Shown here piece after piece: positions 4,938 through 30,296 of a stretch of DNA of 64,000 nucleotides. Position 1 is the stretch's first letter; each line of letters starts with the position of its first letter. Position numbers and translations under genes: made by a program. The notes under the pieces are model-generated. The model was not told where the DNA came from. It was given only the letters and a program-made list of their open reading frames with translations, and made no database searches. The stretch is from Escherichia coli (GTDB taxonomy: Bacteria > Pseudomonadota > Gammaproteobacteria > Enterobacterales > Enterobacteriaceae): NCBI RefSeq assembly GCF_001677475.2, contig NZ_CP015229.1. One strand, written 5' to 3'.

Positions 4938-5083
4938 CTAACCGCTATCCCTCTACTGTATCCCGGATTCAAAGGTCGCAAATTATAACACAGCCGCGCA
5001 GATTGAGGTAAACCTATACGCTTTATTCACATCCAATGCCTGATATACTCGTTTGTCTTGCCAATTACGGAGTAGAAGTGCCA

Positions 5084-5806
5084 ATGAATGCCGAAAAATC
5101 GCCGGTAAACCATAACGTAGACCACGAAGAGATCGCTAAATTTGAAGCCGTCGCCTCCCGCTGGTGGGATCTTGAAGGTGAGTTCAAACCGCTGCACCGC
5201 ATTAACCCGCTGCGTCTGGGCTATATTGCCGAGCGTGCTGGCGGTTTATTTGGCAAAAAGGTGCTCGATGTCGGTTGTGGCGGCGGCATTCTGGCCGAGA
5301 GTATGGCGCGCGAAGGCGCGACGGTGACCGGTCTGGATATGGGCTTTGAGCCATTGCAGGTGGCGAAACTGCACGCACTGGAAAGCGGCATTCAGGTAGA
5401 TTACGTGCAGGAAACCGTGGAAGAGCACGCGGTAAAACATGCCGGGCAATATGATGTGGTGACCTGCATGGAGATGCTGGAGCACGTCCCCGATCCGCAG
5501 TCAGTGGTCAGAGCCTGTGCACAACTGGTGAAACCGGGCGGCGATGTCTTTTTCTCGACGCTTAACCGCAACGGCAAGTCATGGCTGATGGCGGTGGTTG
5601 GTGCGGAATATATTTTGCGCATGGTGCCTAAAGGCACGCATGATGTGAAGAAGTTTATTAAACCGGCAGAGCTGCTTGGCTGGGTAGATCAGACAAGCCT
5701 TAAAGAGCGACATATAACCGGGCTACATTACAACCCGATCACTAATTCCTTTAAGCTTGGCCCCGGCGTGGATGTGAACTATATGCTGCACACGCAGAAT
5801 AAATAA
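5084..5806 (+). CDS. ubiG: Bifunctional 3-demethylubiquinone / 2-polyprenyl-6-hydroxyphenol O-methyltransferase
   Basis: SAM-methyltransferase motif [13 protein letters not shown]; start set at ATG 5084 ([11 protein letters not shown]...), giving 240 aa rather than the longer ORF-track start. Confidence 0.93.
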
Positions 5807-15180: not shown

Positions 15181-15248
15181 TGTGAGACATGAGATTGATG
15201 ACAAATGTAAGATTGCCTGATTCGCCACACTTAGTTGGCCTGTAGTCT

Positions 15249-15338
15249 TTACCATGCGTAATAATTCGTTTTCACCTGATTTTGGTCCACTTTGTGAATT
15301 AGCGATATATATTTATCCAATTTAGGGAAGTGACAATG
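15249..15338 (-). pseudogene. Decayed 3' remnant of an inaA paralog
   Basis: Minus-strand translation HCHFPKLDKYISLIHKVDQNQVKTNYYAW* aligns with the InaA C-terminus HDFRQLEKYLEPIPKADWEQVKAYYYAM*; DNA also aligns with 14111-14190; an in-frame stop lies just upstream. Confidence 0.5.
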
Positions 15339-15645
15339 ACTCCAGGTAGAAACCGGTATGAAGCGCCCGACTCACTGTCAAAACCGATTGTTGAGAGTAA
15401 TGACACTCCGGCGAACAGTACACAGTTTACTCTGGAGCCATTCTCAATCTGCAAGTGGGATGCCTAATAACTTGTCAGGGAAGTTATCAATATCTGTTTG
15501 TTACTTATTACCGTGTTTATTAACAATAATGATACTTTCTAACATGCGTAAAGGTCTTCGTAATAAAATGAGCTAAATTTGATAGTGAATATATTCTGCA
15601 AAGATTAAATTGTATCTAGTTAACTCACAATACAAGGAATCATTT

Positions 15646-16716
15646 ATGCCAAATACATCTATTCAATTATCTCGCTGTAATATTTTACAAAATAATAAAT
15701 TGCAAACAGCAGAAATTTACAAAGAATCACAACAAACCGCGAAACTTGAGATTTTTTGCAATGAGTTTCTAAAAATATCTCAAAGTAGATTCGGGTTATC
15801 AACCTCAGCAGACAACATAGCTAATTTATTGGCTTTTTTCACGAAAGCCTCAGATGAAATTGATAGTATCAAAACCCAAAAAATTGACGTTCACAGTTAT
15901 GGTTTCGTACCAATAAGACATTTTGTCGAGCATGTCATAACGTATAAAAATGAATTTGCAGAAGATTATGAACCCTATACCCTTACCTTTACCCGAGGTG
16001 AAAACAACGAAGGTGTTTTGAGTATCGAAAGCAAAGAAGGGTTTCTTTCAGAAAGAACAATAAATTTAAATGAATATGAAACTGCAATTAACATCATCAA
16101 TGAGCATGTTGCAAAAGAAAATATCAATAACAAGATCCAAACATTGACAGACAAAGACACACCAAAAATAACCAACTCTGACAAAATTTATAAATTTATC
16201 CACGAGTTAAATATAAGAACTCAACTTTACAGCAAGCAAAAAGAATATACAGACCTGCTACTACATTCTGAGAAAAATACAGAATGGTACAAATACACAT
16301 CCTCCGAGGAACGCTATGATGTATTTAAGAATTCTTCTAAAAAAATTGAAAATACCTACAAGCAAATTGTGCAAGCGCAGAAAAAATTGAAGCAAATGAA
16401 ATACATCAATAAATTAAGTGGTGAGCTTATCGATATCGCCGACAAAAAGTTAGCACCATTAATAAATGATAGTTTCAGCTATACACGAGATTTCTTTGCT
16501 TACTCAAAAAATGAAAAAAATATCTTCACATTTGATAATTCTAAGTTTTTAGATCCAAAGGAAAAAGAAGGTTTAATGATACAACACAGCAATGGGCAAC
16601 TGGTTATTACTGGTAAATATTGCCCTGAAGGTATGCAAACAGCATTCACCCAAGAACAATATGATAAATTAATAAGATACATTAATATTTTCTTTACTTT
16701 CCAGAAATGCGAATAA
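15646..16716 (+). CDS. Hypothetical protein, AT-rich orphan, Lys/Asn/Glu/Ile/Tyr-rich, no signal peptide or TM segment
   Basis: Long intact ORF in a visibly AT-rich segment; ATG at 15646 preceded by AAGGAA (ORF-track start 15610 is TTG); no family recognised. Confidence 0.6.
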   Translation: MPNTSIQLSRCNILQNNKLQTAEIYKESQQTAKLEIFCNEFLKISQSRFGLSTSADNIANLLAFFTKASDEIDSIKTQKIDVHSYGFVPIRHFVEHVITYKNEFAEDYEPYTLTFTRGENNEGVLSIESKEGFLSERTINLNEYETAINIINEHVAKENINNKIQTLTDKDTPKITNSDKIYKFIHELNIRTQLYSKQKEYTDLLLHSEKNTEWYKYTSSEERYDVFKNSSKKIENTYKQIVQAQKKLKQMKYINKLSGELIDIADKKLAPLINDSFSYTRDFFAYSKNEKNIFTFDNSKFLDPKEKEGLMIQHSNGQLVITGKYCPEGMQTAFTQEQYDKLIRYINIFFTFQKCE

Positions 16717-16903
16717 TACTGTACATTATAAACTGCATTACAATTTATTATTGAGCCCTATTCATACTGTTTAAAGAATAACAATACCCAGTGTTAGCTT
16801 TCCTAACAAATGAGTTTTACGCAAATATGTTGGCATCTTTTTTAACAGGATGCTCAGGTGAATGAATAGAATAACCGGTAGTAGCATTATTTCGCTTTAG
16901 CTG

Positions 16904-19648: not shown

Positions 19649-23713
<4,065 letters not shown>

Positions 23714-23721
23714 TCTTCACT

Positions 23722-23745
23722 GGCAGGACGTGAAAACCTCCTGCC
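23722..23745 (+). terminator. Hairpin after glpC
   Basis: ggcagga-cgtgaaaacc-tcctgcc immediately 3' of the glpC stop. Confidence 0.4.
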
Positions 23746-24085
23746 ATTCATATCCACGCTGAATATTTCAGAATAACTGCTCTCTATTTTTTTACTTAAC
23801 TTCACATTTCCATGTATTGACACTCGCTATCTAAAAGTAGCTTTATTATGTCCCTTCAGAAACTAATTGATATAAATAATAATATTCACCACCACATTAC
23901 CTAAAAGAATAATAATATACGATTATTAAAAATTAAACATATTCACCAGCATTATATGTTTAGAATTACTTTGATAGTTCCCGCAAAAAAAATGTTTATA
24001 AATATTTATTTGCGTATATAATCCCGTCTGTTTAATATATTAAAAACATAATATTATTCCATTCATCAATATAAAAGGAACTTAA

Positions 24086-24676
24086 GTGAAAGCAAAAATT
24101 CTCATTCCATCGTTATCTGTTCTCTTGATGGGTATATCGGCTTTAAGTTATGCGGACACTCCTGCCGGTAAAGTTCATTTCAATGGGCTAATTACTGCAT
24201 CAACTTGTGACTTAGAGCAAGGTACAGGCAAGGGACAGAATGACCAGACCGTAACGCTTCAGACAGTGGACGTTGCTGATTTTGGCGCTGCTGTAGGTAA
24301 TGAAGCAGCAAACTCTGCAACAGATTTTAATATTAATCTTACCGGTTGTACGACACAATTAGGTAGCATCAACCTTGAATTTAGCGGTAATACCACCGAT
24401 GCCACCGATAATACAGCCCTGGCAATTGACACCGGTGCAGATAAAGCAACAGGCGTAGGGATTCGTATTTATCGTGAAGGTGCTTCTTCACCGATTAATT
24501 TTGCTACTGATCGTACCGATGCAGAAAGCTCTGCGGTAACACTTTCATCCATTAGCCCAACCAATGGTGATGGCAAGCATAGCTTTAATTATAAAGCGGT
24601 TTATGTCAGAACAGCAGATACAATTACTGAAGGTCAGGGTAACGCGACTGCGGATTATCGTATCGCTTACTATTAA
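24086..24676 (+). CDS. Fimbrial major subunit (chaperone-usher pilin)
   Basis: 196 aa, signal peptide MKAKILIPSLSVLLMGISALSYA, Cys pair, C-terminal beta-strand ...YRIAYY; GTG start with AAGGAA RBS. Confidence 0.8.
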   Translation: MKAKILIPSLSVLLMGISALSYADTPAGKVHFNGLITASTCDLEQGTGKGQNDQTVTLQTVDVADFGAAVGNEAANSATDFNINLTGCTTQLGSINLEFSGNTTDATDNTALAIDTGADKATGVGIRIYREGASSPINFATDRTDAESSAVTLSSISPTNGDGKHSFNYKAVYVRTADTITEGQGNATADYRIAYY

Positions 24677-24733
24677 TGATATATTTCAAAGGGGTGAAAT
24701 TACTACACCCCTTAATTACTAAAGTAAAAATGC

Positions 24734-25438
24734 ATGAAAAAATACTCTTTATTACTGATTGTATTATTTGCCAACATTGCTTACGGGGGAGTGGTTATTC
24801 GGGGAACAAGAATTATTTACCCGTCCACGGCGCGGGAAATCCCTGTAGAAGTGACGAATCAAGATAAAGAGCGTTCATACCTTGTTCAGGCCTGGATGAG
24901 TGACTTTGCCAATGATGCAAATAAGAAAACGCCATTTGTACTCACTCCGCCGTTAGTTAAACTGGAAGCTCAGAAAAACACGCTTTTCCGCTTAATCTAT
25001 ACCGGTACGCAAAAATTGCCGGAGGATCGTGAATCCATTTTTTGGCTAAATGTAAAATCCATTCCTGGGATGTCAGAAGAGTCTTCACAGGTGCCGAATC
25101 AACTGCAATTTGCCGTTCAGAGCCAGCTCAAAGTTTTTTATCGTCCGCTGGGGCTTGCTGATGATGCCAATACCGCCTATAGCAAAATCGCTTTCCGGAT
25201 ACAAGGCAACAGGCTAATCGCCAAAAACCCAACACCTTACTTTGTCACCTTCCGCACTCTGGCAGTGAATGGTAAGCCCGTATCGTATAAAGGAAACGGC
25301 GTTGTGAAAATGATGCTCAATCCATTTGGCGAGCAAACATATACTCTGACCGCATCCTCTTCTGAAAACAATAGTGTTGAATGGTCAGCAATAAATGATT
25401 ACGGCGGTACGACAAATACCATAAAGACCCGGTTATAA
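24734..25438 (+). CDS. Periplasmic fimbrial chaperone (PapD-like)
   Basis: 234 aa, signal peptide, conserved chaperone motifs (GTRIIYP, LxQxW, FWLNVKSIP). Confidence 0.85.
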   Translation: MKKYSLLLIVLFANIAYGGVVIRGTRIIYPSTAREIPVEVTNQDKERSYLVQAWMSDFANDANKKTPFVLTPPLVKLEAQKNTLFRLIYTGTQKLPEDRESIFWLNVKSIPGMSEESSQVPNQLQFAVQSQLKVFYRPLGLADDANTAYSKIAFRIQGNRLIAKNPTPYFVTFRTLAVNGKPVSYKGNGVVKMMLNPFGEQTYTLTASSSENNSVEWSAINDYGGTTNTIKTRL

Positions 25439-25499
25439 GCGCAATAGATTGTTCAGGAAAACGACAGGAATTATCTCGTACAAGGAAAGTAATAATAAC

Positions 25500-27986
25500 A
25501 TGAACTCCTTACATCTATTTTGTTTGCATGTTGTTGTAACAATAGTGCCATTGACACTGTTACAAAACAGTTACGCCCGCGAGGTGTTTAATTACAAACT
25601 TTTAGAGTCAGGGGCTTCAGAAAGCGAACTGGAAGCCATTAAAAATTTTGACAAAAATGATGGCCTGGTGCCCGGTAAATATCGGGTCGATGTTTTTATG
25701 AATAATCAACGCATTACACGTAAAGATATTGATTTTGTCGTTGATGATAAAGCGAACAAACTCTTACCTGTGTTAAGCAAAAAAGAGTATATCGCTATGG
25801 GGGTTGCCGATAGCCCCTCCGCGTCATTTGCCACGCTGGCAAATGACGATATCGTGACGAATTTAGAAAATTATATTCCCTTTTCATCAGTGCGCTTTGA
25901 GCAAAGTTCGCTGCGTCTGTATCTGTCAGTTCCACAACTGGCGATGAACAATGCCGCAAACGGGTATATTGATCCGGTTTTATGGGATAATGGATTGCCT
26001 GCGTTGTTTACAAATTACTATTTTAGCGGCTCACATAATTGGCAAGATGGTCGTTCAGATAATAGTTCATATCTTAATCTGAATAATGGTATTAATCTTG
26101 GTCCCTGGCGTTTAAGAAATAACATTAATTATAACGATGGCACCTGGCAAAATATTGATACCTATATCTGGCGAAATATCCCTGCGTTAACCAGCAAACT
26201 CATTCTTGGCGATACCTGGACAGATTCAGCCGTTTTCGATAGTTTCCAGTTTCGCGGGGTAAAACTGGAAAGTAATGAAAATATGCTTCCTTACAGCATG
26301 AGAGGTTTTGCCCCCGTTATTCGCGGCGTTGCCAAAAGCAATGCGCAAGTGACGATTCGACAAAATAATTATATTATTTACCAAAGTACGGTATCCCCAG
26401 GTCCTTTCGAATTACATGATGTCTCTCCTGTTTCTTCTGGTGGGGATATGGAAGTCACGGTAAAAGAATCTGATGGTAGCGAACAAAAATATATTCAGGC
26501 ATCAGCTTCAATTCCTGTCATGCGCCGAGAAGGAGCCATGTCTTATAGTTTATCTGGCGGAGAATATCGCTCATCTGATAACTCCCATGATAAACCCGGC
26601 TTTGCTCAGGCGACGCTGATTTACGGTTTACCTGCAGGCATTACCCTCTATGGTGGCACAATTTTTGCCAGTGATTATCGTTCTGGCGCATTAGGTGCGG
26701 GTGTCGATTTACAACACTTTGGCTCGCTTTCAGCAGACATTACTCGTTCATATAGCCAGACGGTTGATGACAGTTCACAACAAGGACAATCTTACCGATT
26801 GCTTTACTCGAAAAATTTCTCCAGCACTGAAACGAATATCACGCTTGCTGGCTACCGTTATTCCACAGAGAATTTCTATACCTTTAGCGAAGCACAAAAT
26901 AATAAAGAGTATGATGAGGACGACGCGTTTTCATACCGTAACAACTATAACCGCCATCGTCGGTTACAACTTACCATTAATCAGGCGATCCCCTCGTTTG
27001 GTCAGTTCAATATTTCAGGCTATCAACAAGATTATTGGGGACTCGGGGGTAAAGAGCGCAGCCTCAGCGTAGGGTATAGTCATAGTTGGGAAAATGTGAG
27101 TTTTAGCCTAAGTTATTTACTGACACGAATGCCAGACAATAATAAGAACGATCAACAACTCTCACTTTCTGTCAGCGTTCCACTAGGAAAATGGTTACCT
27201 GGTGCGCATGTTAATTACAATAACACCAGCAGTAATAGCGGTCACACTTTAAACAGTGTGGCGCTTAACGGTACTGCGCTGGAAGATAATAATCTCAGTT
27301 ATAGTCTGCAACAAAGTCATGGCGATCAAGGTTATGGTGGCAATACGTCACTCAGTTATCGCTCCAGTAAAGGCGTAATAGGCGCAGGCTGGAACTATAG
27401 TCAGGATCAACGGCAATTAAATTACAATATGCAGGGCGCAATTGTTCTGCATCCGTATGGATTAACCCTTGCCCAGTCTTTAGGTGAATCATCGATTCTG
27501 GTGCGCGCCCCTGATGCCAGTGGGCTGGGCATTAACAGAGGAACGTCGGTTTATACCGACTGGCGAGGATACTCCATCATCCCTTACGCATCAGCATTTC
27601 AGCGCAACCGTATCGCCATCAATACGCAAACCTTGCCGTCAAATGTTGAAATACCGGAACCGGTACAAGAAGTTATTCCTACGGAAGGCGCATTAGTCGT
27701 AGCCAATTTTTCAACGCGATATGGTCAGAAATTACTTTTAACCTTAATGCATAAAGACAAATTTGTTCCCTTTGGAGCCGTAGTCACTGCTGAAGATGAG
27801 CAAATTTCAACCCTCGTTGGGCGAAACGGTGAAACGTATTTATCCGGCGTACAAGCTAATCAAAAATGGCAAGTCAAGTGGGGAAAATCGGCCACTGAAA
27901 GTTGCCAGGTTCATATATCACCAGAACTACTTCAGACACCGCAAAACATGACTAATCTTATTATTGCCACCGCAGCGTGTGATTAA
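25500..27986 (+). CDS. Outer-membrane fimbrial usher
   Basis: About 829 aa from ATG 25500 (ORF-track start 25449 is TTG); usher-sized beta-barrel protein with C-terminal Cys pair. Confidence 0.85.
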   Translation: MNSLHLFCLHVVVTIVPLTLLQNSYAREVFNYKLLESGASESELEAIKNFDKNDGLVPGKYRVDVFMNNQRITRKDIDFVVDDKANKLLPVLSKKEYIAMGVADSPSASFATLANDDIVTNLENYIPFSSVRFEQSSLRLYLSVPQLAMNNAANGYIDPVLWDNGLPALFTNYYFSGSHNWQDGRSDNSSYLNLNNGINLGPWRLRNNINYNDGTWQNIDTYIWRNIPALTSKLILGDTWTDSAVFDSFQFRGVKLESNENMLPYSMRGFAPVIRGVAKSNAQVTIRQNNYIIYQSTVSPGPFELHDVSPVSSGGDMEVTVKESDGSEQKYIQASASIPVMRREGAMSYSLSGGEYRSSDNSHDKPGFAQATLIYGLPAGITLYGGTIFASDYRSGALGAGVDLQHFGSLSADITRSYSQTVDDSSQQGQSYRLLYSKNFSSTETNITLAGYRYSTENFYTFSEAQNNKEYDEDDAFSYRNNYNRHRRLQLTINQAIPSFGQFNISGYQQDYWGLGGKERSLSVGYSHSWENVSFSLSYLLTRMPDNNKNDQQLSLSVSVPLGKWLPGAHVNYNNTSSNSGHTLNSVALNGTALEDNNLSYSLQQSHGDQGYGGNTSLSYRSSKGVIGAGWNYSQDQRQLNYNMQGAIVLHPYGLTLAQSLGESSILVRAPDASGLGINRGTSVYTDWRGYSIIPYASAFQRNRIAINTQTLPSNVEIPEPVQEVIPTEGALVVANFSTRYGQKLLLTLMHKDKFVPFGAVVTAEDEQISTLVGRNGETYLSGVQANQKWQVKWGKSATESCQVHISPELLQTPQNMTNLIIATAACD

Positions 27987-27990
27987 CATC

Positions 27991-29037
27991 ATGAAGATAA
28001 AAATCATCAGTACTTATAAAGTTACAAGTCGTGAAACGTTATTGCTGCTGGTTATTTTGATAGCAGCCTTTGTTCCTTCTCTTAGTTTCGCTAAAACATG
28101 TAGCTACGCCAGTGGTGGACCGGCATTAGTTTCATTTTCTGATATTTCGATCAATTCTGAATACAATAAAAATACAGCGCCAGGAACCATAATTTTTGAT
28201 CGAAGTTATCATTCCAGTCACTCAGGACAGATCACATGCTCAGACAATTATCCTGATTACAGTGAAGGGTTTGCCACTTCTCCTTCAACTTTAGTCGGCA
28301 GTGATATCTGTTTATTCAATGTACCTTTGACTAATGGAAAAAATTCTGGCATCGGCATTAAAATATTTTACGATTTAAAGAATAATAATACCACCCCAAA
28401 CAATTACTGCATGGAATACCCTAAACGTACCAGCACTGCAAATAAAAACAACTTTTCCGTTGAGGGTAATTTCCGCATACAATTAAAAGTCATCGGGGAA
28501 TTACAGAGTGGTGAAATTGATTTATCTCGTTTTAGTAATGCTGGCATTTGGTGGAATAATATTGAGGCATTTTCTCTCGAATTTAGCAACACCATTATTA
28601 ATCTTCACTCATTGAGCTGCGACCTGAACACGCCTGATGTTCCAGTTTCATTATCACCCGCCGCAGGAATTAATTCCGACATCACCTTCAAAGGGATTAA
28701 CTCCACTTCGGCGCTGGTAGATTTTAATATCGGACTAACGTGTGATCCGGGAACCAATGTCGCCATACGTTTTGAAGGCGATACGGTAAGTGGAAGTAAT
28801 AATTCAATCCTGAAGCTAACTCAACAGAATAATTCTGCCTCTGGGGTTGGCGTACAGATCTTAGATAAGAATAAAAATATTATCCCCCTTAATCAACCTG
28901 ATTACGTTTTACAGTTAAGTAATATTCAGCAATCAGCCACGTCGTTGAATTTTAGTGCGCGATATATTCAGACAGAAAGTAATGTAACGCCAGGAAAAGC
29001 GGATGCGGATGCGACATTTTATCTTTCGTTTCCGTAA
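27991..29037 (+). CDS. Fimbrial tip adhesin / minor subunit (two-domain)
   Basis: About 349 aa from ATG 27991; signal peptide, N-terminal lectin-like half and C-terminal pilin-like half; last gene of the operon. Confidence 0.65.
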   Translation: MKIKIISTYKVTSRETLLLLVILIAAFVPSLSFAKTCSYASGGPALVSFSDISINSEYNKNTAPGTIIFDRSYHSSHSGQITCSDNYPDYSEGFATSPSTLVGSDICLFNVPLTNGKNSGIGIKIFYDLKNNNTTPNNYCMEYPKRTSTANKNNFSVEGNFRIQLKVIGELQSGEIDLSRFSNAGIWWNNIEAFSLEFSNTIINLHSLSCDLNTPDVPVSLSPAAGINSDITFKGINSTSALVDFNIGLTCDPGTNVAIRFEGDTVSGSNNSILKLTQQNNSASGVGVQILDKNKNIIPLNQPDYVLQLSNIQQSATSLNFSARYIQTESNVTPGKADADATFYLSFP

Positions 29038-29060
29038 TGAACAGCAATAAACCCGCGAAC

Positions 29061-29084
29061 AGGTGCCGGAAGCATCCGGCACCT
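29061..29084. terminator. Bidirectional hairpin between the fimbrial operon and yfaY
   Basis: Perfect inverted repeat aggtgccgga-AGCA-tccggcacct in the 53-bp convergent gap. Confidence 0.5.
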
Positions 29085-29090
29085 GGAATA

Positions 29091-30296
29091 TTATTGCGGC
29101 GACAGTCTCAGCGACTCAACAACCTCAATCCAGCCATGCTCACTGGCGATGTTCTGCCCGTTCAGCCAGCGGCGCAGCATATTCAGTGCCATCATTGCGC
29201 ACACTTCCTGACGGATAGCCAGGCTGTAGCGCGTAGTGCTGAAACGCACACGCAGAGCGAAAGTGCCGTCTGGTGTGGCTAGCGCAAAGTTGAGATGTTC
29301 GTTCTCGAAACCAGAAACAGCCAGTGCCAGCCCGGCAAAATGGTTGGCCCGCCGTTCTGTAATCCAGTGTGCAGTTTGCGCCAGAGTTTCTTCCTGTGAA
29401 GGAACCACTTCACATGCCAGTAATGGCGCACCTGCGCGCGAGAGTTGCAAAGCCAATAAACCACCGGTGAATTGCTCACTTAACGTCAGGCTGAACTGGC
29501 GACTTTGCAGTTCGCGACTGATTTGTGCAGGCAGTCCTTCTGTGCCTTCGAAAATCATGCTTTGCCCGGCGACGCGTTTAACGTCCAGCCACAGTTTTTC
29601 CATCGCCTGTTGCTCGCTTGCCGGTCCAGTGAGTTTCAGTTCAATAATCGGCATGGAAGAGCGATAGCCCATCGTCACACCTGGCGGCAGTTGCAACACA
29701 TCCAGGCTTTGTGCCAGATCGCTTTCCGAACGACCAAAAGTGGTCAGCCGCAGGCAAACCGGCGGCTGCGGCAAAGAAAAACGCTCGCGCAGGCGCGGCA
29801 GGATTTCATGCTCGACCATCACCTTAAACTCCGACGGTACGCCGGGGGTAAAGAATATCAGGCAACGGTTAAGCTGCACGGCAAAACCACAAGCGGTGCC
29901 TACCGGGTTATTGATAAATTCAGCACTGGCTGGCAGCTCCGCCTGTTTGCGGTTGCTCGGCGCCATTACGCGACCACGTTCGCGGAAATAGCGTTCCATC
30001 TCATTGAGCCATGCTTCATGAAGAACCAGGTTTTCACCTTTGGCTGTCGCTGCGGCGAGTGCGCTTAAATCATCACTGGTCGGCCCCAGTCCGCCATTGA
30101 CGATCAGCACATCGGCGTGCTGACTACGTTCGCGCAGAATGGTGACTAAGTCATCAAGGTTATCCCCCACCGTATTGCGGCGAGATAATGGCAACCCCTG
30201 ATGAAAGAAAAAATCGGCCAGCCAGGCAGCGTTAGTGTCAACGATTTGCCCGTGTAACACTTCATCCCCGGTGGATAGCATTTCCACTTTTAACAT
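29091..30296 (-). CDS. yfaY: CinA-like (MoCF-binding / competence-damage) protein
   Basis: 401-aa ORF MLKVEMLSTGDEVLHGQIVDTNAAWLADFF... typical CinA N-terminal domain. Confidence 0.85.
   Translation of the reverse strand: MLKVEMLSTGDEVLHGQIVDTNAAWLADFFFHQGLPLSRRNTVGDNLDDLVTILRERSQHADVLIVNGGLGPTSDDLSALAAATAKGENLVLHEAWLNEMERYFRERGRVMAPSNRKQAELPASAEFINNPVGTACGFAVQLNRCLIFFTPGVPSEFKVMVEHEILPRLRERFSLPQPPVCLRLTTFGRSESDLAQSLDVLQLPPGVTMGYRSSMPIIELKLTGPASEQQAMEKLWLDVKRVAGQSMIFEGTEGLPAQISRELQSRQFSLTLSEQFTGGLLALQLSRAGAPLLACEVVPSQEETLAQTAHWITERRANHFAGLALAVSGFENEHLNFALATPDGTFALRVRFSTTRYSLAIRQEVCAMMALNMLRRWLNGQNIASEHGWIEVVESLRLSPQ

Follow-up and report, generated by a model that had tools for sequence, protein, structure and literature searches.

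A minimal γ1-type chaperone-usher fimbrial operon beside yfaY in Escherichia coli, probably acquired from an E. ruysiae-like species

A 64,000-nucleotide (nt) stretch of DNA from Escherichia coli (assembly GCF_001677475.2, contig NZ_CP015229.1), referred to as the window, carries a minimal chaperone-usher (CU) fimbrial operon of four genes between glpC and yfaY. The operon is intact, its usher appears to be of the γ1 type, and it was probably acquired through an import of about 8.2 kb from an E. ruysiae-like species into the site beside yfaY. The probability of this reading as a whole is put at about 85%.

The case for an import is based on the identity profile of the window. For the most part, the backbone of the 64 kb shows 97-99.6% identity to E. 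coli K-12, which drops to about 90-93% over approximately 1.8 kb to the left and 1.1 kb to the right of the operon. In a tract that starts distally in glpB, at about 21.9 kb, takes in glpC and the operon and extends into yfaY, the window is instead 97-99.7% identical to a group of six genomes (L016-L021). Beyond this tract, its identity to them falls to 93% on the left side and 85.5-92.8% on the right side. These six were examined from the many assemblies (205 index blocks) that hold a near-identical form of the adhesin gene. In all six, the order is glpC-operon-yfaY without rpnE-rhm genes, and the genomic background has 93-94% identity to K-12. The leader of the operon is 98.4-99.2% identical to them, and yfaY in the window is 97.6-98.7% identical to them compared to 93.1% for K-12. 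In addition, 1,302 sites that discriminate K-12 from one of these genomes (L018) were scored along the window. Within the tract (22,000-23,749 and 29,000-29,999), about 200 sites were of the donor type and 5 of the K-12 type, whereas beyond it more than 90% were of the K-12 type. The switches between the types are sharp and fall at 21,750-22,000 in glpB and at 30,000-30,250 in yfaY. Homology of the window to E. coli ends 7 nt before the glpC stop codon and restarts within the 3' end of yfaY. Because the tract is this similar to genomes with otherwise divergent backgrounds, and because its breakpoints are sharp, it is best explained as an interspecies import by homologous recombination into an E. 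coli backbone from an Escherichia species of about 93% identity.

The donor species is probably E. ruysiae, since the cluster of the adhesin includes a member named Escherichia sp. TW14182, a strain of cryptic clade IV (PMC7716201), and since clades III and IV constitute E. ruysiae, with an average nucleotide identity of 92-92.8% to E. coli (PMC8346766). The allele is resident beside yfaY in this E. ruysiae-like species, and crossovers in glpB and yfaY evidently brought the tract into the E. coli backbone, thereby removing rpnE-rhm. The same arrangement is found in a further genome (L001, GCA_037967675.1), which matches the window at 99.4% identity across 21 kb. Strain E69 (L006, CP089930.1), titled E. 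coli, was considered as a second recipient of the tract and rejected. It is 98.8-99.7% identical to three of the six donor-type genomes (L016, L018 and L020) and is therefore a member of the donor species with a truncated operon, in which IS1 has left no more than the final 254 nt of the adhesin gene. Two 768-bp copies of IS1 occur in E69 (1288-2055 and about 5004-5771); they share 99.9% identity and are inverted relative to each other. One of them is responsible for the truncated operon, and its partner sits in the nudI-ais interval. In the window, a patch in glpA (20750-20999) was also observed, in which 14 of the 28 discriminating sites are of the donor type, with K-12-type sequence between the patch and the tract. 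Another short recombination event or mosaic repair may account for it.

In K-12, the interval between glpC and yfaY holds rpnE(yfaD)-ypaA-yfaU-yfaV-rhmD-yfaX, and a tblastn search found no operon remnants there. An earlier note on this DNA, made from the sequence without database searches, had placed yfaD and the rhamnonate genes of K-12 at this position. This proved accurate, and the operon itself, whose presence at the same K-12 position would have contradicted the note, is not located there. The note had further described the locus as a strain-variable replacement. K-12 does differ at this site, but the difference is better described as an interspecies introgression of about 8.2 kb, and the operon does not strictly exclude rpnE-rhm, since one of its alleles coexists with these genes in E. 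coli.

The operon consists of four co-oriented, uninterrupted open reading frames (ORFs) spanning 24086-29037 on the plus strand, which confirms the coordinates and the assignments proposed in the earlier note (pilin, chaperone, usher and two-domain adhesin) by the ORF listing together with family and structure matches. The intergenic gaps are 57, 61 and 4 nt, and 53 nt separate the stop codons of the adhesin gene and the convergent yfaY, as had been noted. The length of the usher is counted from an ATG lying within an ORF that opens at a TTG at 25449. Gene lengths and start sites agree with independently called homologs (196, 234, 828 and 348-351 amino acids (aa)). The four genes include none for an adaptor (FimF/FimG-like) or a terminator subunit, and no mobile-element genes were found within or adjoining the operon in the window. 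The G+C content is 56.0% in glpABC, 27.4% in the spacer of 372 bp, 41.9% in the operon, 38.4% in the adhesin gene and 54.6% in yfaY. The claims of an operon more AT-rich than its flanks and of about 370 bp of very AT-rich DNA in front of it were thus borne out.

By sequence, the pilin has the features of the major subunit of a classical CU operon, namely a signal peptide ending in SYA, an N-terminal donor-strand extension (GKVHFNGLI) and a predicted incomplete immunoglobulin-like pilin fold; it also has a cysteine pair and a C-terminus ending in YRIAYY. It matches the NCBIfam families LpfA, LpfE and FimA, with the LpfA/FimA-type matches spanning residues 1-195, and aligns to Salmonella FimA, for which structures are solved, including the GKVHFNGL donor strand and the cysteine pair. 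Its start codon is GTG in the window and ATG in the allele of a related lineage (allele B, described below). The chaperone is a PapD-like two-domain protein with the conserved subunit-anchoring arginine and lysine. It matches the NCBIfam families LpfB, FimC and similar ones as well as FimC in the PDB (E=8e-40), with its GTRIIYP and NVKSIP motifs aligned to ATRVIYP and NVKAIP of FimC, and near-identical homologs bear the Pfam domains PapD_N and PapD_C. The usher has the N-terminal, beta-barrel/plug and C-terminal domains expected of a CU usher, and a homolog at 99% identity carries the Pfam domains PapC_N, Usher and PapC_C. Its best NCBIfam families are PRK15193 (739 bits), LpfC (700 bits) and FimD (659 bits), with alignments near full length (residues 21-806 of 828), and its PDB matches include FimD (612 bits, 41% identity, residues 47-806) and PapC (273 bits). 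None of the four products, including the pilin with its LpfA, LpfE and FimA matches, reached an NCBIfam equivalog cut-off.

The earlier note had proposed a phylogenetic placement of the usher and a structure prediction of the lectin domain of the adhesin, and both were carried out. In a neighbor-joining tree of 12 sequences, which included no γ2, γ3, κ, α or σ references, the usher groups with FimD, SfmD and the usher of a Bcf-like operon that adjoins glgP in E. coli 042, and HtrE (Yad) and YfcU fall outside with 100% bootstrap support. The usher and its relatives, all from four-gene cassettes, branch separately inside this group. On that branch, the three Escherichia alleles are one clade, followed by Citrobacter, [Enterobacter] lignolyticus and a Salmonella four-gene cassette. 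References of the γ1 clade include BcfC, FimD and LpfC (PMC9238391, Table 2). Because of the top NCBIfam families and the clustering in the tree, the usher is classified by sequence as γ1-type, forming its own sub-lineage.

The adhesin is a two-domain tip adhesin, as had been claimed, with a receptor domain and a pilin domain that lacks its own donor strand. The Pfam family Fimbrial matches residues 230-347 only, and no Pfam family was found for residues 1-229. The C-terminal 140 residues resemble FimA and FimF, and this alignment begins at the cysteine just past the donor-strand position of FimA. An AlphaFold2 model of the full adhesin, built from an alignment of 14 sequences, consists of two beta-rich domains with a predicted local distance difference test score (pLDDT) of 88; its best Foldseek matches in the PDB are the two-domain tip adhesins CupB6 and FimH as well as FimA-like pilin domains. 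The receptor-binding domain modelled alone (residues 35-207) reached a pLDDT of 92 and a predicted template modelling score of 0.87. The closest solved folds are Abp1D/Abp2D and MrkD, at sequence identities of 9-14%, and the FimH lectin domain is absent from its top fold matches. Furthermore, the adhesin matches neither the mannose-binding Pfam family of FimH nor PF22003 (MrkDrd). Ligands of the Abp domains are fibrinogen, collagen IV and mucin-type glycoproteins, which are bound in a distal pocket that an anterior loop delimits; adhesins of the Abp/MrkD type are assigned to γ4 systems (PMC9942807). R128, a nearly invariant residue among the relatives of this adhesin, is a candidate equivalent of the key pocket arginine, which is R86 in Abp and R105 in MrkD. 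Because of this Abp1D/Abp2D/MrkD-like fold, the model weakly suggests that a glycoprotein, matrix-type or polymer ligand in the distal pocket is more likely than mannose.

Relatives of the adhesin are rare. A word-indexed search of 5.8 billion proteins returned only 13 clusters, and a full HMMER scan of 1.84 billion representative proteins with the N-terminal receptor domain found 6 clusters at E<=1e-3. The greatest divergence is seen in the receptor domain, for which the identities are 75% (allele B), 51% (Citrobacter) and 41% (lignolyticus). Near the C-terminus, an in-frame repeat of the unit GCGGAT encodes an alanine-aspartate stretch whose copy number varies between strains, with one additional unit in E69 and adhesins of 348, 350 and 352 aa in the 90% identity cluster. 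Since this repeat is in frame, it does not constitute a frameshift switch.

All four reading frames are intact in every allele examined, and their lengths are nearly constant across genera (196, 234, 828-829 and 348-351 aa). The earlier note had conceded that frameshifts might have been missed; the four fimbrial genes in the window were searched for frameshifts and internal stop codons, and none were found. Between the allele of the window, designated allele A, and allele B (L009), the ratio of nonsynonymous to synonymous substitution rates (dN/dS) falls within 0.05-0.07 for each gene (0.07 for the pilin) and likewise for the receptor domain. As these ratios are low, the four genes are under purifying selection and are maintained rather than debris.

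Allele B (L009 and L010) occupies the same glpC-yfaY site in a lineage that is 88-90% identical to K-12; its usher and adhesin are 84% and 77% identical to those of the window. A 208-aa adhesin called in L009 was considered as a pseudogene and turned out to be an artifact of the gene caller, since the frame of 348 aa is intact. Allele C (L022, GCA_011317775.1, and L023) is found in an E. coli background that is 97.3-97.5% identical to K-12 and lies between rhmR and yfaY, with rpnE-rhm present. Its usher and adhesin are 75% and 63% identical to those of the window, and at the nucleotide level the allele is only 67-80% identical to the window. It is bracketed by direct repeats of about 150 bp (L022 6888-7031 and 12693-12840), which consist of the yfaY terminator and the last 69 nt of the gene. 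The two copies are 81% identical, one being K-12-like and the other divergent. In sequence terms, these repeats look like the signature of a Campbell-type or duplicative integration, and a deletion spanning from one to the other would restore the K-12 gene order. Outside Escherichia, the cassette was found in Citrobacter portucalensis/C. braakii between rimL-like and ydcH-like genes and in [Enterobacter] lignolyticus SCF1 between ndh/ycfJ and ldtC/mfd. A Salmonella usher (L015) with 44-45% identity was rejected as an ortholog, as it belongs to a different four-gene cassette with a MrkDrd-annotated adhesin.

Among 5,426 complete E. coli genomes, the operon was detected in none, using megablast with the window locus and with allele C, and a sensitive blastn search with the usher gene, which yielded only a core of 270 nt at about 70% identity to other ushers. 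The nearest resident usher at the DNA level belongs to the Bcf-like operon of seven genes next to glgP (L024; E. coli 042, NC_017626.1 3910346-3917538). This usher was matched in 3,508 of the 5,426 genomes, and the first chaperone of the operon is frameshifted in strain 042. A scan of GTDB representatives with the adhesin returned only E69; its peptide-pattern method detects close relatives only, so that absence elsewhere is uninformative. No paper naming both yfaY and "fimbrial" was found, and the running text of the catalog of 38 E. coli CU types by Wurpel et al. 2013 does not name glpC, yfaY or yfaD (PMC3559732). Since the operon is absent from the complete genomes, it is unlikely to be among the cataloged types. 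The lignolyticus-type cassette at ndh-mfd may correspond to the EFER_1138/SARI_01025 type of that catalog.

A rival explanation is vertical inheritance. In this case, the Escherichia ancestor would already have had the operon beside yfaY, mainstream E. coli would have lost it, and the flanks would be divergent owing to an old polymorphism of the locus, not to a recent import. A deep allele does adjoin yfaY in each of three Escherichia backgrounds, and the three group together to the exclusion of Citrobacter; allele C coexists with rpnE-rhm in E. coli and is flanked by the repeats that would allow a return to the K-12 arrangement by deletion. Therefore, an ancient presence in the genus is plausible. 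Vertical descent does not, however, predict a tract with 97-99.7% identity and sharp breakpoints shared with genomes that are 85-93% identical outside it, and the allele C of E. coli itself is only distantly similar to the window at the nucleotide level. In addition, the synonymous divergence (dS) between the operon alleles A and B, at 1.1-1.9, exceeds that of the flanking genes at 0.52-0.55. The operon alleles may be older than the split of their hosts, or this gap may reflect weak codon bias. For the tract in the window, a purely vertical origin is considered unlikely. Insertion of a small mobile island by site-specific or transpositional recombination is regarded as highly improbable. The cassette does occur at three unrelated sites, beside yfaY in Escherichia and at the two sites in Citrobacter and lignolyticus, its G+C content is below that of its host, and the repeats around allele C resemble a Campbell-type integration. 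Against this, no integrase, transposase, insertion sequence, tRNA gene, att site or short direct repeat or target duplication adjoins the operon in the window or at the carrier loci examined. Moreover, the window's homology to E. coli ends inside glpC and yfaY and not at a discrete element end, and donor-type sequence continues into the housekeeping genes on the two sides, for 1.8 kb and 1.1 kb.

It is also very unlikely that the operon is a decaying, non-functional remnant that no longer produces fimbriae. Many E. coli CU operons are reportedly silent in the laboratory (Korea et al. 2010, cited in PMC3466228), the operon has no dedicated activator, its pilin starts with GTG, its adhesin gene lacks an obvious Shine-Dalgarno sequence, and the E69 operon was destroyed by IS1. 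Intact frames in every allele examined, lengths kept across genera and the low dN/dS values argue against decay. An intact γ1-type operon imported from an E. ruysiae-like species thus remains the preferred explanation, and several points weigh against it. The operon is known from its sequence only, so that expression, assembly and binding are predictions. The promoter is a consensus match, and the number of sigma-70-like sites in the region is no higher than in shuffled sequence. The usher tree comprises 12 sequences and was built by neighbor-joining only, and the receptor class is derived from overall fold similarity at 10-14% identity. The name E. ruysiae was derived from identity levels at this locus and from the name of a single protein rather than from whole-genome average nucleotide identity; the direction of the transfer was inferred from the shortness of the tract in an otherwise E. 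coli-like window; and the donor may be an unsampled lineage.

The assembly of the fimbriae can be outlined in analogy to the well-studied Fim and Pap systems, from which the following mechanism is derived. All four proteins would be exported by Sec, and the chaperone would cap each subunit through donor-strand complementation. The usher would first take up the chaperone-adhesin complex and then polymerize the pilin beneath the adhesin via donor-strand exchange, leading to a fiber with the receptor-binding domain at its tip. By this analogy, the operon is predicted to assemble a surface fiber.

With regard to regulation, the earlier note had seen neither a regulator or recombinase gene nor an inversion-based switch, which agrees with the ORF listing and an inverted-repeat scan of the leader. 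An invertible or Dam-type phase switch was ruled out, as there is no recombinase, the leader of 372 bp has no GATC site, and its inverted repeats are only low-complexity AT-rich ones. Similarly, a small regulator or RNA in the leader was ruled out because its plus strand has no ORF of at least 60 aa, just one of 21 aa, and no Rfam match at E<=1. The best promoter candidate lies about 64 nt upstream of the pilin start, and its TATAAT-like -10 element recurs in allele B and, almost unchanged, in Citrobacter. Because the G+C content of the leader is only 27%, it is suggested to be a likely target of H-NS-type silencing, with expression only under particular conditions. A hairpin is also present at the glpC-stop position in allele B (L009). 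The hairpin at the other end of the operon had been described as shared by the operon and yfaY. A hairpin does exist at this junction. Since its core (GTGCCGG...CCGGCAC) is kept in K-12, which lacks the operon, it represents the terminator of yfaY itself, abutted by the operon. The core is likewise kept in both L022 copies, L009 and L018. This terminator may be bidirectional and also stop transcripts of the operon.

The features of the locus are listed in Table 1. Upstream of the operon are glpA, glpB and glpC, and the convergent yfaY downstream is followed by yfaZ, nudI, ais and arnB. The assignment of yfaY is supported by the NCBIfam YfaY equivalog (801 bits, cut-off 496).

Table 1. Features of the fimbrial locus, in window coordinates unless residues are given.
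Feature	Position	Strand	Remarks
Putative introgressed tract	21900-30200 (approximate limits)		3' part of glpB, glpC, fimbrial operon, most of yfaY
Hairpin just past glpC stop	23721-23746	+	TGGCAGGACGT-GAAA-ACCTCCTGCCA; inverted repeat, weak terminator candidate
AT-rich upstream control region	23714-24085	+	372 bp, 27.4% G+C; from composition
Best sigma-70-like promoter candidate	23995-24022	+	TTTATA-16 nt-TATAAT; 10/12 consensus matches, top-scoring
Major fimbrial subunit (pilin)	24086-24676	+	196 aa, GTG start
PapD/FimC-like periplasmic chaperone	24734-25438	+	234 aa, short-loop (FGS) type
Outer-membrane usher	25500-27986	+	828 aa, γ1-type by sequence
Two-domain tip adhesin	27991-29037	+	348 aa
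Adhesin signal peptide	residues 1-34
Adhesin receptor-binding domain	residues 35-207; 28093-28611
Adhesin pilin domain	residues 208-348; 28612-29034		without N-terminal extension
In-frame (GCGGAT)2.5 repeat	28999-29013	+	encodes (Ala-Asp)n near adhesin C-terminus; Tandem Repeats Finder
G+C-rich hairpin between convergent adhesin and yfaY genes	29060-29085		11-bp stem
yfaY, convergent neighbor	29091-30296	-	CinA-family, 401 aa; mostly donor-species allele type

Several other differences from K-12 were observed in the window. A segment of 1.7 kb between the position of the yfaH pseudogene and glpQ (15193-16903) is absent from K-12 and contains an orphan ORF on the plus strand (15610-16716) that encodes 368 aa, is AT-rich, has a product rich in lysine, asparagine and glutamate, and has no NCBIfam or PADLOC family. 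At about 2070, the K-12 genes yfaP-yfaQ-yfaS-yfaT-yfaA (alpha-2-macroglobulin locus, 8.7 kb, K-12 2327820-2336552) are absent, and the adjacent DNA on the atoB side is unusually divergent, with 90-95% identity to K-12. K-12 yfbK (1.5 kb) and yfbN-yfbO-yfbP (2.5 kb) are missing at about 50720 and 52575, respectively. The flanks of the yfbK gap fall to 84-94% identity, which is the same divergent-flank pattern as beside the fimbrial operon.

Fimbrial adhesins determine where a bacterium attaches. Since the adhesin is absent from all complete E. coli genomes searched and its receptor domain is nearly without relatives, it may confer an attachment specificity that has not been described in E. coli. 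A more far-reaching interpretation is offered tentatively and is considered possible rather than probable. It holds that the operon encodes an uncharacterized γ1 fimbria at home in environmental or cryptic Escherichia, whose orphan domain of the Abp/MrkD fold would bind a non-mannose ligand, such as a host glycoprotein, a matrix component or an environmental polymer, and that the introgression would provide the recipient with a new attachment specificity. The locus is also an unusually clean, base-resolved case of gene flow from cryptic Escherichia to E. coli via flanking housekeeping genes, and the glpC-yfaY interval holds at least two independent presence/absence segments, rpnE-rhm and the fimbrial cassette.

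In comparison with known systems, the operon is an uncharacterized member of a well-known kind and does not change the general view of CU systems. What it adds is the apparent interspecies import, the three-allele structure of the site beside yfaY, the independence from rpnE-rhm, and an orphan receptor domain of predicted Abp/MrkD-like fold on γ1-type machinery. It shares the assembly class of the E. coli type 1 fimbriae (fimAICDFGH), as seen from the FimC and FimD matches. The pilin and the pilin domain of the adhesin resemble FimA and FimF, and both systems have a two-domain tip adhesin. The operon differs from type 1 proper in comprising only four genes, without FimI, FimF and FimG, without the fimB/fimE invertible switch, its recombinases or switch repeats, and with a receptor domain that is not FimH-like in its Pfam and fold matches; its FimD score of 659 compares with a cut-off of 975. 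The long polar fimbriae (lpfABCDE) and the Bcf-type γ1 operons, such as the one by glgP in E. coli 042, have usher identities of about 41%. The scores are far below the Lpf equivalog cut-offs (LpfC 700 vs 1271, LpfB 179 vs 360, LpfA 56 vs 221), and in contrast to these operons, the one described here has no fifth gene, extra minor subunit or second chaperone and is found at a different chromosomal locus. The receptor domain has a predicted fold like that of Abp1D/Abp2D of Acinetobacter baumannii and MrkD of Klebsiella type 3 fimbriae, but these belong to γ4 systems (PMC9942807), unlike the γ1-type usher of the window. The closest counterparts are the cassettes of C. portucalensis/braakii (196, 234, 828 and 351 aa, usher 70% identical) and [E.] lignolyticus SCF1 (196, 228, 848 and 354 aa, usher 58% identical). 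Both are related at the ortholog level and have the same gene order; they differ in chromosomal site and in their more divergent receptor domains, and they are likewise uncharacterized.

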